The translations under genes and the position numbers were made by a program. The notes under the pieces were generated by a model. The model made no database searches. It saw nothing but the letters and a program-made list of their open reading frames with translations, and was not told the DNA's origin. Positions 53,828 to 60,400 of a DNA stretch of 64,000 nucleotides are shown one piece after another (the first letter of the stretch is position 1; each line of letters starts with the position of its first letter). Source of the stretch: Escherichia phage MIZ4; the sequence record OR167180, one strand, 5' to 3'.

Positions 53828-54424
53828 TTAATTGCTTGTCAATACTTTATCAATTATATCTAACAGTTTTGGCTTTCTATTTTCAAATTCTAACATCTCT
53901 TCGGGAGAAATGTCAACTACTTCTGTTTTGTTGAAAAAGTTTGGGTCTATAGCATCAGCAACAAAGTTTCTCGCAAGTGCTGCCGCTTTCTCATGAACAT
54001 ATATTCCCAAATATATCAACTTCTTTCTTTCGACCTGAATATTGGCAACATATTTACCATCTCGTTTATAAAGACTAACACCGATATATTCAGACGATCG
54101 ACCTTTCTGTTTACCCATATTTCTTGAGTTTTGTTGCTCGTTCGCATCTCTCAAGTTTTCAATCCGATTATCTGTTATAATTCGGTTAACATGGTCAACG
54201 TATTTTGGCATGTATCCATGATGCATAAAGAAAATTATTCTATGCTCTTTATGATGTTTACCATCGATACACACCAATCTGTATCCATGACTAGGATTAA
54301 CTCCACCCGCTCTAGATCCGACTTTATGCTTTCTGTTTGTCGATATCTTGCGAATCAGCTTACCGTTATCATATTTAAAGAGTTCATGACAACGAGCATA
54401 CAATTCAGGATCATATGTTTTCAC
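53828..54424 (-). CDS. HNH homing endonuclease with AP2-like DNA-binding domain
   Basis: HGYRLVCIDGKHHKEHRIIF...VDHVNRIITDNRIENLR (HNH) plus YIGVSLYKRDGKYVANI (AP2-like); GTG start inferred; T4 has segG at this locus. Confidence 0.65.
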   Translation of the reverse strand: MKTYDPELYARCHELFKYDNGKLIRKISTNRKHKVGSRAGGVNPSHGYRLVCIDGKHHKEHRIIFFMHHGYMPKYVDHVNRIITDNRIENLRDANEQQNSRNMGKQKGRSSEYIGVSLYKRDGKYVANIQVERKKLIYLGIYVHEKAAALARNFVADAIDPNFFNKTEVVDISPEEMLEFENRKPKLLDIIDKVLTSN

Positions 54425-55088
54425 CTTTTAACCTCGATATTTCTTTACACTCTTTAACTACTTTAACAAATAATGCTCTTGCTTTTGCGGCGTCAATAAC
54501 AAGTAGTTTCTTGTACGCCTTCATTTTAACACTATAAGTTTGCCAAATCAAGTCTTTGGCTACCTTGTCGTGTTCGTCGATTATATTTAGAAAGCTATCT
54601 AACAACATAAACGACTCAAACGATATAATCCGATTTTGCAGTAGTTTAAAGATACCGCTAGTTTCGGTTGCAGGATTATATGTAATTAGCTCTTTAAGAG
54701 TAACCCCGCGTTTCTCGGAGAAGTATACCAGACTTTTAATGTCATCGTCAAATCTTGTTGCTGCATCGGTTATCTTTCCTATGTATTCCATATAAAAGCC
54801 GTATGCGTCAACATCAGTGATTTCCCCTACCCATGCATCGGTATTAGCTGCCAGATTGCTTAGGAATAGGAAGTATAGTTCTCTTAGATTGTACTTTTCC
54901 GCTAATTTTGCGAAATAATACTTATCTCTGCGTTTATTGAATGCGGCATCAGACAACCGCATCCTCCAATTGTATTTTACGCAATCATAACGCCCGTTCA
55001 TATGAGCTTTCATCATGCAATATAACATATACACAGATTTAGCATTAATTCGCATATCTGGATCTGGAGGAAGACGGTTTCTGATCAT
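54411..55088 (-). CDS. 59: Helicase loader gp59
   Basis: Matches T4 gp59 (KSVYMLYCMMKAHMNGRYD, KYNW, SDAAF, RRDKY, FESFMLLDSFLNIID). Confidence 0.92.
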   Translation of the reverse strand: MIRNRLPPDPDMRINAKSVYMLYCMMKAHMNGRYDCVKYNWRMRLSDAAFNKRRDKYYFAKLAEKYNLRELYFLFLSNLAANTDAWVGEITDVDAYGFYMEYIGKITDAATRFDDDIKSLVYFSEKRGVTLKELITYNPATETSGIFKLLQNRIISFESFMLLDSFLNIIDEHDKVAKDLIWQTYSVKMKAYKKLLVIDAAKARALFVKVVKECKEISRLKGENI

Positions 55089-55097
55089 ACATACCCC

Positions 55098-55367
55098 TTA
55101 AATATCGAGAGTGTTGGTCGGTTCGTCGATCACTCCCTTCCTGAGCGTTCTATTTACTATACATTCTTGTGTGATCTTGTCAATAATGGACACCGGAATA
55201 TACTTCTGATAGTGACCATATTCTATAGAGTTTTCCTCTACAAACTGAGTTGTCGCTTCAAGATAAGTCAATCCCTCTTCAACAACCAGTTTTTCGATTG
55301 CAAGACCGTTTGCTGTTTTGTTCGCGGCTTTTACCGCATGTTCATTAAGCATTGAACACCCGATCAT
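55098..55367 (-). CDS. 33: Late transcription accessory protein gp33
   Basis: Matches T4 gp33 core (EKLVVEEGLTYLEATTQFVEENSI); 89 aa. Confidence 0.8.
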   Translation of the reverse strand: MIGCSMLNEHAVKAANKTANGLAIEKLVVEEGLTYLEATTQFVEENSIEYGHYQKYIPVSIIDKITQECIVNRTLRKGVIDEPTNTLDI

Positions 55368-55620
55368 AGAGTTCTACCGCTTCATCGCGTTCTGCTTCGA
55401 AGGTTTCGCGCTGTTGCTGGTGATACAGTTTAAACAGAATGCCCCACATTTTACCATCTACGCCTAATTCTTCTTTAGCACGCTGCTTGATCTCTTTGAT
55501 CTTATCGCCATATGCTTCTTGAATGGTTTTCTGATCGCTGGCTTCTTTAATCAGTTGTGCCAGGGTATTTCCGTGCACTGCTTCGTCAAATACTACTTTT
55601 TCTTTTTTCTGTTCAGTCAT
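55345..55620 (-). CDS. dsbA: DsbA-like dsDNA-binding protein
   Basis: 91 aa, position between 33 and rnh as T4 dsbA. Confidence 0.7.
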   Translation of the reverse strand: MTEQKKEKVVFDEAVHGNTLAQLIKEASDQKTIQEAYGDKIKEIKQRAKEELGVDGKMWGILFKLYHQQQRETFEAERDEAVELYDRVFNA

Positions 55621-55624
55621 AATA

Positions 55625-56221
55625 TTAACCCTCTTTCGTCATTAATTGAAAACCACGTTCAGCTTTTGAGATTTCGCTAGGACGTAAATCGTCACCCACA
55701 TATTCTAGCATCATTTCTCGTATAATGTCAAGTGCTTTTTCATCACCTGATTTTAACTCGAACTCAAGTTCATAGTGAGCATCTCCCATGACTTCGCCGA
55801 CTTTGCAATAATAGAAAGTGTCTTTGCACATTTCCACTATAGCACCCTCAAGGTCAAGTGTCAATGACTTGCGGTATGTCATTACTTGCAATAAAGGAAC
55901 GATAAGGTCGGAGTTTACGCCTAGACTATCAACATAGTGATAGAAATCATCCATTGTTGAAAAGGTAATTTCTTCTCGGTTGAATAGTCCAGATTCACTA
56001 TCACCTATTTTGACCATGATCAATGATCTATTAACGTCAAGTCGAGCATAAATTCCTTTTCGACGCAGTGCATGATCTTCGGTATCATAATAAAATTCGT
56101 GTTTTATAATGTTATCACGGTCTACGATATTATAACCGTCATACATTGCCACCCACAAATCACAGATGGTTTCGACGCCAATTTGTGAGTGTGCATAGTA
56201 TTTTAATTCAAGTTCTTTCAT
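55625..56221 (-). CDS. CYTH-like (triphosphate tunnel metalloenzyme) domain protein
   Basis: 198 aa; N-terminal ELELKY (ExExK), YYDTEDHALRRKGIYARLD, C-terminal ELEFELK; T4 has no gene here as far as I recall. Confidence 0.5.
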   Translation of the reverse strand: MKELELKYYAHSQIGVETICDLWVAMYDGYNIVDRDNIIKHEFYYDTEDHALRRKGIYARLDVNRSLIMVKIGDSESGLFNREEITFSTMDDFYHYVDSLGVNSDLIVPLLQVMTYRKSLTLDLEGAIVEMCKDTFYYCKVGEVMGDAHYELEFELKSGDEKALDIIREMMLEYVGDDLRPSEISKAERGFQLMTKEG

Positions 56222-56231
56222 GTGTCAACCC

Positions 56232-57179
56232 TTAGAACTCACCAATTTTCTGCAACATTTTAACTAACGCATTTGTTACAAAATAGTTATAAATTTTACC
56301 GCGTGGTGCTGGTTTAGATTTTTCCCATGACTCCAGAATCTGATTCTGAATATCATCTGGGATGTAATCGAAATCAATAAGTTCGCGGTTTTCGTCAAAT
56401 CGTCGTGCTTCTTCCTCTGTCATCAAAGACTTTGGGTCTTCGGCATCGAAAATTTGCTCTAACCATTTGGTTGCAACTGGTTTAGCTCGTTCCCCTTCCA
56501 GTCGAGAGATAATGAAATCACTACGACACTTGACAGAAGCCACACCGTCTTTTGCGTCACCCTTAACACATTTTACCATAAGGTCTTTGTAAGGGCTACC
56601 ATATTTGCATTTCTTCCATGCTTTCTGTACTGGCGCCCACTGTTTCACGTTTTTGTATTTGTGCAACTGTGTGTAGTCACCATCACCTGAGTTGATCAGC
56701 ACCTGGCGACCTTCGACAGAAAACTTTTTAGTTAATACAGCGATTATATCATCTGCTTCAACTTTGTCAACCTTAATAACGTGATAAGGCATGTTCTCTT
56801 TAAACTCTTCGGTGATCTTATTGATCGCAGCAAAGATCATCTCCCAATCACGAGGATCTGCGTCTCGCTTTTCCTTACGGTTGCGTTTATAGTAAGGGGC
56901 GATATCACGTCGCCAGTAACCTTTGCTTGAATCAAAAGCAAGTACCGTAATAGGGTATTGCTCTTTGAATTTTGTCATATTATAACGCATGGTGTCAAGG
57001 ATAAGATGACGGATCATGCCTTCATTAATAGGATCTTCCGGTTTAAAGGTATGCGAGATAGTAGCAATCATAAGCTGCGACATATCAATCAAATGCACAC
57101 CTTCCGGCAGTTTATCTTCTGGATCATCGAAGAAATCATTAAGTGTAGCGGTAGTTTTTGTAAACGGGTTATACGTCAT
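56232..57179 (-). CDS. rnh: RNase H / 5'-3' flap exonuclease
   Basis: 315 aa as T4 Rnh (305 aa); acidic active-site clusters, position before gene 34. Confidence 0.88.
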   Translation of the reverse strand: MTYNPFTKTTATLNDFFDDPEDKLPEGVHLIDMSQLMIATISHTFKPEDPINEGMIRHLILDTMRYNMTKFKEQYPITVLAFDSSKGYWRRDIAPYYKRNRKEKRDADPRDWEMIFAAINKITEEFKENMPYHVIKVDKVEADDIIAVLTKKFSVEGRQVLINSGDGDYTQLHKYKNVKQWAPVQKAWKKCKYGSPYKDLMVKCVKGDAKDGVASVKCRSDFIISRLEGERAKPVATKWLEQIFDAEDPKSLMTEEEARRFDENRELIDFDYIPDDIQNQILESWEKSKPAPRGKIYNYFVTNALVKMLQKIGEF

Positions 57180-57181
57180 AA

Positions 57182-57367
57182 TTAAGTTCTCTCCACTCTC
57201 ACAACAACATATTCGCCAAACGAGTTAGATACTTCACGATCATACCCGTATTTCTCCATAACTCGCAGAATTGCATTGTTTAATTCGGCGCGGAAATAAT
57301 TGTAATCCTTATCAGGGATTCTGTCAACTACCCATTTTGCACCGTCTGACAAATCAACTTTAACCAT
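57182..57367 (-). CDS. Hypothetical small protein (61 aa)
   Basis: ORF immediately upstream of rnh. Confidence 0.5.
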   Translation of the reverse strand: MVKVDLSDGAKWVVDRIPDKDYNYFRAELNNAILRVMEKYGYDREVSNSFGEYVVVRVERT

Positions 57368-57405
57368 AATATATCATCCTCTTTTGTTTCTATCAAGCCT
57401 TATTT

Positions 57406-57413
57406 TATAAATA
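57406..57413 (+). promoter_or_regulatory. Late promoter motif TATAAATA upstream of gene 34
   Basis: Exact TATAAATA about 29 nt upstream of the ATG; AAGGAG RBS. Confidence 0.55.
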
Positions 57414-57441
57414 TGAACATACTATAAAAGGAGACCCAATA

Positions 57442-60400
57442 ATGGCAGATTTTTCTCAACATTTCAAGGCCACATTTGGCTTTGACGCTGGTAATGAAAA
57501 GGTCGTCAATGTAGCATACGCAGATAAAAACACATCAACGGATGCGGTCAACGTTGAATTTTTCAATTACCATAATGGTATTACTCAGTATGACACAACT
57601 CGCGGTTATGATCAATACGGCACTACAATCTATCAAAACCGTCCGTATTATGCAAAAGAAGATATCGCAAAACCAGCAGGTGACTTTGACCCGACTAAAT
57701 GGCAAGCACTGCGCACGGACCCACGTTGGGATTATGTTGCAGCAACTTCCGGCGATACTCCTTTAAAGTCCGGTGATTATATCGCAGCGGACTGTCAGTT
57801 TGCAAACTTGACATTCTCAATGCCTACTAATCCTGTAGAGGGCGACACTATAACAGTAAAAGATATCGGTGGCAAGTGCGGTGTTAATGAGTTATCGTTC
57901 CTTTCGGTTGGTCATGAGTTCTATCATAATGGTGTGGTAAACAACCGCAAATGGTACTGTACTACCCCTTATGCAATGAACTACTTCATTTTTGTTCGCA
58001 ATCGCTGGCACGTTTACCAGACGGGAACGGAGCCACGCGGGGTATATGCACAACCATCTATCGACCCGATCCAGATGCAAAACGGTGATCAGGTATTCCG
58101 CCGTAGTTCTTTGGGTAACATTGTTTTGATGCTTCCTAAGTTTGCTAATAACGGTGATATGATCCAGACTACCGATCTTGACGGATTGACTGCAACCAAC
58201 CATGTTACGGTAAAAGTGCATGAAGGTGCGCAAGAACAATCGATCGGTACTTTCGGGGTAAAAGAAATTGTTGGTAAGCGTAGCGGTCATGGTGTATTCA
58301 TATTTGACAAACCGGAAAACTTATGGCGTTTGTGGGATGGTGATCAGTCTGTTCGCTTGAATCCTATCATTAGTGATACTCAATTATCCCCTAATAGCTA
58401 TGTTGCAGTATTTGGTGATCGTGATGTTACCTTGACTTTACCGACCAATGTCGAGCCGGGTGATCGCATTCAAGTTTCTATGCAGTATATGCACGGAAAC
58501 CAGACTTGCCGAATCATTACCTCAGAAGAGGATACAAAAATCCTTATGCAGAAAAACATGGTTCAGTTTCCTAAGCGTAGCGAGTACCCATTCAATGGGA
58601 CCGATACATGGATGGGAGTGTCTGAATTGTCTTTCAACGCTGCAAATGATTATGTACCTTATCTGGAGTTCTCTTATTCAGAAGGTGATGATGGTAAGAA
58701 ATACTGGTTGGTGGCACATGCTTACCCGATTGTAGAACGAGTAGATCCGACTCGTAAAGATCGTGTTGGTGTAATTGCACTGGCTACCCAGGATGAAACA
58801 AACAAAAACCATGAAGATAATCCTAGCGACGAAGTTGCGGTGACTCCAAAGGTTCTGGCTAATAAAACAGCCAACGAAACTCGACGCGGTATTGCTCGCA
58901 TTGCAACTCAAGCGGAAACGCATCAAGATACTGGTTCCAACTTCCTGGATGATGTTATCGTTACGCCTAAAAAGTTAAATGACTGTGTTGCTACCGAAGC
59001 CCGTCGTGGTGTGATGGAAATTGCAACCCAGCGCGAAACCAATGAAGGTTTAGACGATACCCGCGCTATTACTCCTAAGAAATTAGAAGAACGTCGCGCT
59101 TCCGAAGACCTCGCTGGTATTGCTGAAATTGTTCAGGTCGGCGGTAGTGCTGCCGCTCGACGTGGCGAAGCTGGTACAGGGATCTATAACATCAATGACC
59201 ATGCTAAAATTGTTACGCCAAAAAACATCAACGAAGTCAAGGCGACCGAAACTTCCCGTGGTGTTGGCTATCTGGCAACTGACGCGGAAGTGCAAGGGGC
59301 TACAGAATCAACCCCGCAAGATGCTTTACTAATCACGACTCGCACGCTAACGAAACGTACTGCTACCGAATCGCGCACTGGTATCGCTGAAATTGCAACT
59401 CAGGAAGAAACAAACTTAGGTCAAAGTGATAACCATATCATCACGCCCAAAAAGCTGCATACTCGCCGCGCAACGGAAACTTTACACGGTTTAGCAGAAA
59501 TTGCAACTCAGCCGGAATTTGACTCAGGTCTTGACGATGCTCGCATTTCTACCCCATTGAAGATTAAAACCTTCTTTGAGAATGCACAGCGTTTGAAAGT
59601 AGATCCGACTCAGGGGCTTAACCTTACTGGTGATTTGTGGCAAGGTATCATGATCCGCGGTCTGGACGCAACCGAAGACACAAAAGGTGTCGCTAAAGTT
59701 GCTACTACTCAGCTTACTGACGCTGGTCAAGATGATACTACAATCATCACGCCTAAAAAGCTGCAAGGCAAAAAGGCAACCGAAGGTAAAGAAGGTATTA
59801 TCCGAGTTGGTACTCAAGCCGAAACCGTGGCTGGTGCACTGGCTAATGTAGCAATTTCTCCGAAGAACTTCAAATATGTTGTTCAGACAGAGGATACATG
59901 GAAAGCAACCGAAGCGCGTCGTGGATTCTTGAAAGTTGCTACTCAGGAAAACTGTTTTGTTGGTGATAATCTGCAAGGTTCTACTCAAGAACTAGGAAAC
60001 TACCAGCATGACGGAATTGCTGTTACCCCGAAAGGATTAAACTATGCACTTGCTAATTTCTTACCTAAGATGGCAACCGCTCAGAATAGTTTGAAATTGG
60101 GTAACGTAGAGGCCGCTAAATGGGCGCGTAGAGACATTGACCAGACCATAGAGAGCAATTACACGTTTAATAAAAACGTTAACGTGAAGGGCGATTTGGG
60201 GTGCTTAAAATCTGGTTCCTTTGAAACTCTGTTTGTGACTAAGAACTCTACTGATGTTCCGAGTAATGGTCATTTGGTGTTGGGTGAGCGTGGAGTTGAC
60301 GGTCACACCGGAATTACTCTACATGGCACAACCGCATCGGAAGGCATGAAAAACTCGTGGTCTATTATCGTTGGTGGTACTGGAACAGCGCAAGTTGTTG

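Follow-up and report, generated by a model that had tools for sequence, protein, structure and literature searches.

A CYTH-family triphosphate tunnel enzyme, probably a hydrolase, with a clade-specific active-site strand between rnh and dsbA of Krischvirus phages

The rnh–dsbA interval of Escherichia phage MIZ4 (sequence record OR167180, of which a stretch of 64,000 nucleotides, the window, was analysed here) encodes a CYTH-family protein that is, in our judgement, likely to be a catalytically competent hydrolase rather than a cyclase, housed within the phage replication block and possibly acting on a substrate beyond simple triphosphate. The gene is real and conserved, and its family assignment is correct, though already in public records; any proposal for what it acts on, or for what the phage gains from it, is a guess. 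What goes beyond the public record is a Y-x-R-x-D signature in the active site, a divergence island within the gene, a resolved active-site register and grounds for excluding the cyclase reading.

A phage CYTH gene at a position where T4 has none

A preliminary description, made from the DNA letters alone, had placed a CYTH-like gene between dsbA and rnh. The open reading frame is present at that position with every motif quoted for it, and Pfam identifies both neighbours.

55625..56221, minus strand: CYTH / triphosphate tunnel metalloenzyme gene, ATG start, 198 aa, ortholog of RB49ORF244c
56229..56233, minus strand: AAGGG Shine–Dalgarno sequence, 7 nt 5' of the CYTH ATG and at the rnh stop codon, kept in eight genomes

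The dsbA gene starts 4 nt past the CYTH stop codon. In T4 this slot is empty, in line with the preliminary description, with rnh and dsbA 8 nt apart and no gene between them. The neighbours recognized by Pfam are rnh, dsbA, gene 33, gene 59 and an HNH/AP2 endonuclease, with gene 32 further on; the strand opposite the CYTH gene carries only short open reading frames (at most 79 aa), none of them supported. The surrounding 2.4 kb region recurs without a single difference, and with unchanged coordinates, in Escherichia phage MIZ5 (OR167181.1); a total of 58 records match it, among them RB49, JSE, GEC-3S, Phi1 and further Krischvirus phages at 95–98.5% identity.

The same block holds a second Krischvirus-specific gene, a conserved 61-aa open reading frame (57182–57367, minus strand; ortholog of RB49ORF246c) that lies directly upstream of rnh and for which Pfam offers no credible family; the T4 interval from rnh to gene 34 is without a gene. 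Between gene 59 and gene 32 is an HNH + AP2-domain homing endonuclease of 198 aa (53828–54424, minus strand), whose reading frame shares 14 nt with the end of gene 59. This endonuclease is present in MIZ5 and Skers and absent from RB49, Phi1, ECD7, MIZ6, Brandy and JK32, and its slot in T4 is occupied by the unrelated GIY-YIG endonuclease SegG.

The CYTH identification itself is not new: the enzyme family is a known one, of which this protein is a phage member yet to be characterised. RB49ORF244c, 97% identical to the MIZ4 protein, is entered in the RB49 GenBank record as 'similar to P45267, P30871, HI1598, ygiF', and was listed with a Pfam CYTH hit at E 0.0026 (Nolan et al., 2006; PMC1524935). 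A few later genomes label the ortholog 'inorganic triphosphatase' or 'adenylate cyclase'. A literature search on phage CYTH function found no relevant paper for any member in the library covered.

Relationship to cellular triphosphate tunnel enzymes

The protein matched the Pfam CYTH profile (PF01928) over residues 27–190 with 30.3 bits (E 4.5e-7), above the gathering threshold of 23.2, so that the profile search proposed in the preliminary description came out in favour of its reading. In PHROGs the protein is phrog_14893, function unknown; no NCBIfam profile matched it, nor did any PADLOC defence or counter-defence model at E up to 1. The only credible match among PDB sequences, with the single sequence and with the family profile, was Escherichia coli YgiF, across the whole tunnel domain (E ~0.004), and hhalign aligned the phage family with 24 cellular CYTH proteins at a probability of 99.5% (E 1.8e-22). 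An AlphaFold2 model built from a 35-sequence alignment (pLDDT 94.2, pTM 0.87) has the eight-stranded antiparallel β-barrel tunnel that the preliminary description had anticipated. Because the Pfam match, the YgiF match, hhalign and the model agree, we take the predicted fold to be a triphosphate tunnel, the closest solved relative of which is a triphosphatase; together with the invariant acidic residues described below, profile and predicted fold support the claim of a CYTH-like triphosphate-tunnel enzyme.

YgiF (PDB 5a60/5a61), a protein of 433 aa with an N-terminal TTM domain, is an inorganic triphosphatase. The phage protein shares 23–24% identity with it, is 198 aa long and ends after the plug helix, with no CHAD domain (no PF05235 match). 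The simplest reading of this likeness, a sub-case of the hydrolase model, is a plain inorganic triphosphatase or short-chain polyphosphatase serving as a metabolic accessory, its PPPi supplied, for example, by dGTP/dNTP triphosphohydrolases or by polyphosphate breakdown. YgiF is the best match by structure as well as by sequence and is a specific PPPase, an activity from which the CYTH family has been proposed to descend (PMC3440374), and some GenBank records already say 'inorganic triphosphatase'. We nevertheless regard this reading as possible but doubtful: the CHAD domain missing from the phage protein is the polyphosphate-binding part of YgiF, the host pyrophosphatase already gives abundant PPPase activity (PMC3440374), and the active site differs from that of YgiF at the two positions considered below.

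Stand-alone bacterial CYTH proteins of ~200 aa (e.g. from Caulobacter and Burkholderia) have the same size and single domain as the phage protein, are 25–36% identical to it, and share with it the ELKSGD and SKAERG blocks and all catalytic columns. The block that had been likened to the CYTH substrate-binding region was found in the open reading frame. Unlike the phage protein, these bacterial relatives carry the canonical small-x-R-x-R strand and are cellular, encoded outside any phage replication block; they are themselves uncharacterised. The tunnel fold is also detectable in BFVD in proteins of Aeromonas phages 65.2 and D3, of uncultured Caudovirales and in giant-virus capping enzymes, at TM 0.36–0.57 and 8–16% identity to the Krischvirus protein; rather than orthologs, they seem to represent lineages distinct from that of the Krischvirus gene. 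Aeh1ORF004c was listed with a weak CYTH hit in 2006 (PMC1524935).

In a further reading, of the kind raised in the preliminary description, the protein would be an RNA 5'-triphosphatase that converts ppp-RNA to pp-RNA and modulates mRNA or primer decay. We think this very unlikely. The Cet1 Pfam profile (PF02940, mRNA_triPase) gave no match at E up to 1, the likeness to YgiF and thiamine triphosphatase is much stronger than that to Cet1, and the tunnel end is predicted to be shut by a conserved plug helix, as in small-molecule enzymes (PMC4641920); the adjacent rnh is in itself no sign of 5'-ppp chemistry.

An old resident of one T4-like lineage

The CYTH gene was found in 58 of 58 Krischvirus-like records. 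A tblastn search of 50,697 records with the window protein and two distant clade members returned no cultured phage beyond those same 58, and an IMG/VR pattern scan gave three Krischvirus-like loci and nothing wider. Of the clusters matched in a set of 1.84 billion representative proteins, just four (E 1.6e-15 or better) are members of the clade itself, the other matches being distant cellular CYTH or CYTH–CHAD proteins. Metagenomic homologs with 58%, 45% and 30% identity all lie directly upstream of dsbA–33; rnh is just upstream of the first two, and the contig of the third is too short to reach it. Because these distant homologs keep the same slot, the gene has long resided in the rnh–dsbA interval of one T4-like lineage and is no newly acquired insert. 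That the host ygiF was captured recently was considered and rejected on the low identity to YgiF. The GC content of the gene is 0.36–0.38 against 0.40–0.43 in the flanks, a slight drop that is uninformative on recent transfer.

In Escherichia phage vB_EcoM_G2494 (MK327935.1, locus L013, 601–1196) the ortholog is annotated as two open reading frames, 601–801 and 804–1196. The split implies a frameshift near codon 67, the sole such case in the 58 records; it could reflect a true pseudogene or else an error of sequencing. Since this isolate has the gene split, the gene may be dispensable in the laboratory, unless the frameshift is an error.

Conserved catalytic residues and the register of the active site

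The residues expected to line the tunnel fall in the following segments of the gene.

56201..56215, minus strand: ExExK motif of strand β1, codons 3–7 (E-L-E-L-K), metal-2 ligands and phosphate-binding Lys by homology, invariant in homologs
56036..56050, minus strand: variant of the x-R-x-R strand, codons 58–62 (Y-A-R-L-D), placed by hhalign and by hairpin positions in two AlphaFold2 models
56009..56011, minus strand: Lys codon 71, equivalent of YgiF Lys-69, substrate binding (PMC4641920)
55970..55978, minus strand: codons 82–84 (R-E-E), R-x-E of strand β5, R82 and E84 invariant
55871..55873, minus strand: Arg codon 117, tunnel arginine, equivalent of YgiF Arg-126, conserved
55751..55771, minus strand: acidic strand β8, codons 151–157 (E-L-E-F-E-L-K), invariant, roles from PMC4641920
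55652..55669, minus strand: segment aligned with YgiF SKAARG, helix 186–195 in the AlphaFold2 model

In 14 non-redundant clade members (at least 30% identity), E3, E5, K7, D46, R60, K71, R82, E84, R117, E151, E153, E155, K186 and R189 are invariant, and they match near-invariant columns of 174 cellular relatives. The acidic motif residues singled out in the preliminary description are thus conserved in homologs down to 30% identity, and its readings of the ELELKY start as the ExExK signature and of ELEFELK as the C-terminal acidic strand are both borne out by this invariance. E3-L-E5-L-K7 occurs in all clade members and aligns with Glu-4/Glu-6/Lys-8 of YgiF; the ExExK motif is seen in 165–166 of the 174 cellular relatives, the remainder being gaps. 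The K and R of the SKAARG-like segment are kept in 173/174 and 155/174 of these relatives respectively. Structures and mutants of YgiF and AtTTM3 assign Glu-4, Glu-6 and Glu-162 to metal 2 and Glu-160 to metal 1, with Arg-56 as the catalytically essential arginine and Lys-69 in contact with the substrate (PMC4641920). By alignment, E153 would be the metal-1 ligand (YgiF Glu-160) and E155 a metal-2 ligand (YgiF Glu-162).

The position of the catalytic arginine depends on the alignment. In a HMMER pairwise alignment Tyr58 stands opposite YgiF Arg-56, and such a loss of the catalytic Arg would mean a dead or unusual enzyme; hhalign and the hairpin registers led us to reject this. In hhalign, R60 is the first Arg of the strand and a two-residue deletion falls in the hairpin that follows; an ungapped alignment anchored at the YYDT motif also puts R60 at the catalytic position. 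The hairpin loops of the AlphaFold2 models span residues 63–66 in the phage protein and 60–63 in a canonical homolog (P0067), and each model pairs the conserved Lys with the residue that precedes the first Arg by two positions. Because hhalign, the YYDT-anchored alignment and the two hairpin registers concur, we accept R60 as the predicted catalytic first Arg, followed by a hairpin that is two residues shorter. The orientation of the Y58, R60 and D62 side-chains is deduced from alignment and strand register, the structure being a predicted one.

One tunnel Arg is lost in the phage clade, as described in the next section, and phages are known to use sponges that soak up signalling nucleotides, so the protein might instead be a non-catalytic binder of a phosphorylated ligand. 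All the metal ligands and the catalytic Arg are invariant clade-wide, and simple binding would not need them; we find the sponge hardly credible.

A Y-x-R-x-D strand specific to the phage clade

Two positions of the active-site strand separate the phage clade from its cellular relatives, 172 of which were counted here. The residue two before the catalytic Arg is Tyr in 42/44 phage clade members and A, G, S or T in 158/172 cellular relatives; the residue two after it is Asp in all 44 clade members and Arg in 166/172 cellular relatives. The phage strand therefore reads Y-A-R-L-D in place of the canonical small-x-R-x-R, with Asp for the second Arg and Tyr for the small residue of YgiF. In the two most distant members of the clade, Tyr58 is Val or Ile.

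What marks the thiamine triphosphatase subfamily is an aromatic residue two positions ahead of the catalytic Arg (PMC8233210); there it stacks on the thiazolium ring, close to the plug helix (PMC4641920; PMC8233210). Y58 occupies the W/Y position of that motif and D62 stands for the second Arg: the subfamily motif is W/Y-x-R-x-R, and compared with the mammalian 25-kDa thiamine triphosphatase (PDB 3bhd, 5a64) the phage protein has Y-x-R-x-D without the second Arg. Overall, the phage protein is much closer to YgiF than to thiamine triphosphatase, and it is the thiamine triphosphatase-like Tyr that the two most distant members have lost. The second Arg usually touches the β/γ phosphates, although mutating that of AtTTM3 had little effect (PMC4641920). 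Asp in place of a phosphate-binding Arg could weaken triphosphate binding.

Read together, Asp for the second phosphate-binding Arg and Tyr at a usually small position point to an altered specificity, which counts against the plain inorganic triphosphatase. The Y-x-R-x-D strand suggests a substrate other than bare PPPi, possibly one with an organic moiety stacked on Tyr58, and does so weakly because the most distant pair of clade members has Val or Ile instead of this Tyr.

Evidence for a hydrolase rather than a cyclase

The reading that we prefer is a stand-alone, catalytically competent CYTH-family triphosphate tunnel metalloenzyme. By homology to YgiF, AtTTM3 and thiamine triphosphatase, the triphosphate chain would be bound within the tunnel by R60, K71, R82, R117, K186 and R189, and two Mg2+/Mn2+ ions would be held by E3, E5, E153 and E155; the terminal phosphate of a triphosphate-bearing substrate would then be hydrolysed off by a two-metal mechanism. 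We infer this mechanism from the homologous enzymes.

The preliminary description had left the choice between a class IV adenylate cyclase and a triphosphatase, and several GenBank records use the former label. Three signatures mark class IV cyclases: HF four residues before ExExK (HFxxxxExExK), a small residue for the first Arg, and Ala for the second Glu of the β8 ExE (Vogt et al., 2021; PMC8233210). The phage protein has none of them. The HF motif is absent, and indeed impossible, because only M1 and K2 precede E3; R60 is retained rather than swapped for a small residue; and E155, the second ExE Glu, is present and invariant. Thus, where CyaB / YpAC-IV (PDB 2fjt, 3n10) replaces the gate-keeper Arg and the metal-2 Glu, the phage protein keeps both and lacks HF. 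Because all three signatures fail, a class IV adenylate or nucleotidyl cyclase is highly improbable; the triphosphatase half of the earlier suggestion is the more probable, and the half in which the enzyme makes a messenger is disfavoured.

Several GenBank records are thus very probably mistaken in naming the protein 'adenylate cyclase', a label that is likely a legacy mis-annotation. YgiF was once annotated in the same way and is without cyclase activity, a known legacy mislabel of bacterial CYTH proteins (PMC3440374). YgiF, the nearest relative to have been characterised, has no established physiological role and contributes a marginal share of cellular triphosphatase activity (PMC3440374).

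Old alleles in a homogenised backbone

Comparison of eight Krischvirus genomes, otherwise close to identical, revealed a region of divergence.

55789..56238, minus strand: divergence island in the 5' ~450 nt of the CYTH gene, by identity across the eight genomes

Mean pairwise DNA identity is 76–86% in the island and 97–99% in the flanks, rnh, dsbA, 33 and 59 all being 97–99% identical among the eight genomes. Identity to Skers falls to 48–71% in 90-nt bins (43–73% in 60-nt bins), and the last ~130 nt of the CYTH gene return to ~95%. The alleles fall into RB49-like, Phi1-like and Skers-like classes. They differ mostly in loops and in the pair of outer helices; the strands of the tunnel do not vary.

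dS is 0.35–0.65 in the variable part (saturated against Skers) and 0.04–0.2 in the flanks, a 3–10 fold rise. dN/dS is 0.19–0.38 in the variable part and 0–0.15 in the flanks (0.13–0.38 is given for the CYTH gene). The gene is under purifying selection, and therefore functional. Positive selection on the island was entertained and is unsupported at these values, with dS raised too. Several old alleles sit in a homogenised backbone, a pattern that fits diversifying pressure on a host-interacting surface and equally fits recombinational import of old alleles.

The island bears on the possibility that the enzyme is a counter-defence or host-takeover hydrolase, whose target might be an alarmone (pppGpp, for instance), an oligonucleotide messenger with a 5'-triphosphate or a non-canonical (d)NTP; the organic part of such a substrate would lie against Tyr58 near the plug helix. 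Divergence islands of this kind are common among host-interaction genes, and here there are at least three allele classes within near-identical flanks, varying on surface helices and loops around a fixed tunnel. The clade-specific Y-x-R-x-D change and its aromatic residue, which in thiamine triphosphatase stacks an organic ring (PMC8233210; PMC4641920), would suit such a substrate. We still consider this reading unlikely, given that PADLOC models and the literature provide no link, that Tyr58 is replaced in the two most distant clade members, and that old-allele import explains the island equally well. The fuller version, in which a re-specialised tunnel hydrolase destroys a triphosphate-bearing nucleotide that the infected host makes as a signal or toxin and the allele diversity records an arms race, is distinctly unlikely; with dN/dS under 1 and dS elevated too, an arms race is not favoured over allele import.

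A smaller mosaic patch was observed inside rnh (56329–56418, minus strand). It is 77–82% identical to Skers, ECD7, MIZ6, Brandy and JK32, 96% to Phi1 and 100% to RB49; outside the patch, rnh is 94–100% identical.

Candidate promoters within the replication block

The minus strand of the interval 55000–57500 contains 18 sigma-70-like sites, compared with 8.0 ± 3.3 in shuffled sequences, and the excess matches carry exact TTGACA −35 boxes inside coding sequence.

56743–56770, 57299–57327, 56200–56228, 55836–55864, 55702–55731 and 55156–55183, minus strand: best sigma-70-like sites, by consensus matches
56743..56770, minus strand: perfect sigma-70 consensus inside rnh (TTGACA, 16-nt spacer, TATAAT, with TG), 12/12 matches, identical in eight genomes
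55702..55731, minus strand: sigma-70-like site (TTGACA, 18-nt spacer, TAGAAT, with TG) in the conserved CYTH 3' end, 11/12 matches, ~85 nt upstream of dsbA

The site at 56743..56770 may serve as an early promoter for the CYTH gene. That at 55702..55731 is kept in seven of the eight genomes, with one change in Skers. Conservation of these sites is no proof of function, because they overlap conserved codons. The phage is presumably without T4-type middle promoters, with which the excess of sigma-70-like sites may fit. Early co-expression of the CYTH gene with replication genes is plausible from these matches, and in the hydrolase model the gene, lying in the rnh–dsbA–33–59–32 replication and late-transcription block, would probably be co-transcribed from sigma-70-like early promoters.

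On the plus strand, a T4-type late promoter box, TATAAATA, is found at 57406–57413, 29 nt upstream of the start at 57442 of gene 34, which encodes the proximal subunit of the long tail fibre.

Implications

The gene is universal in a well-studied genus of E. coli phages, where it sits amid replication and late-transcription genes, and its clade-specific active-site change offers a tractable handle on the in vivo role of tunnel triphosphatases. The practical outcome is a correction of the 'adenylate cyclase' entry in several GenBank records. If the substrate proved to be plain triphosphate, the enzyme would be a minor metabolic accessory; if it were a signalling or non-canonical nucleotide, the Krischvirus protein would represent a new enzyme type for phage counter-defence.
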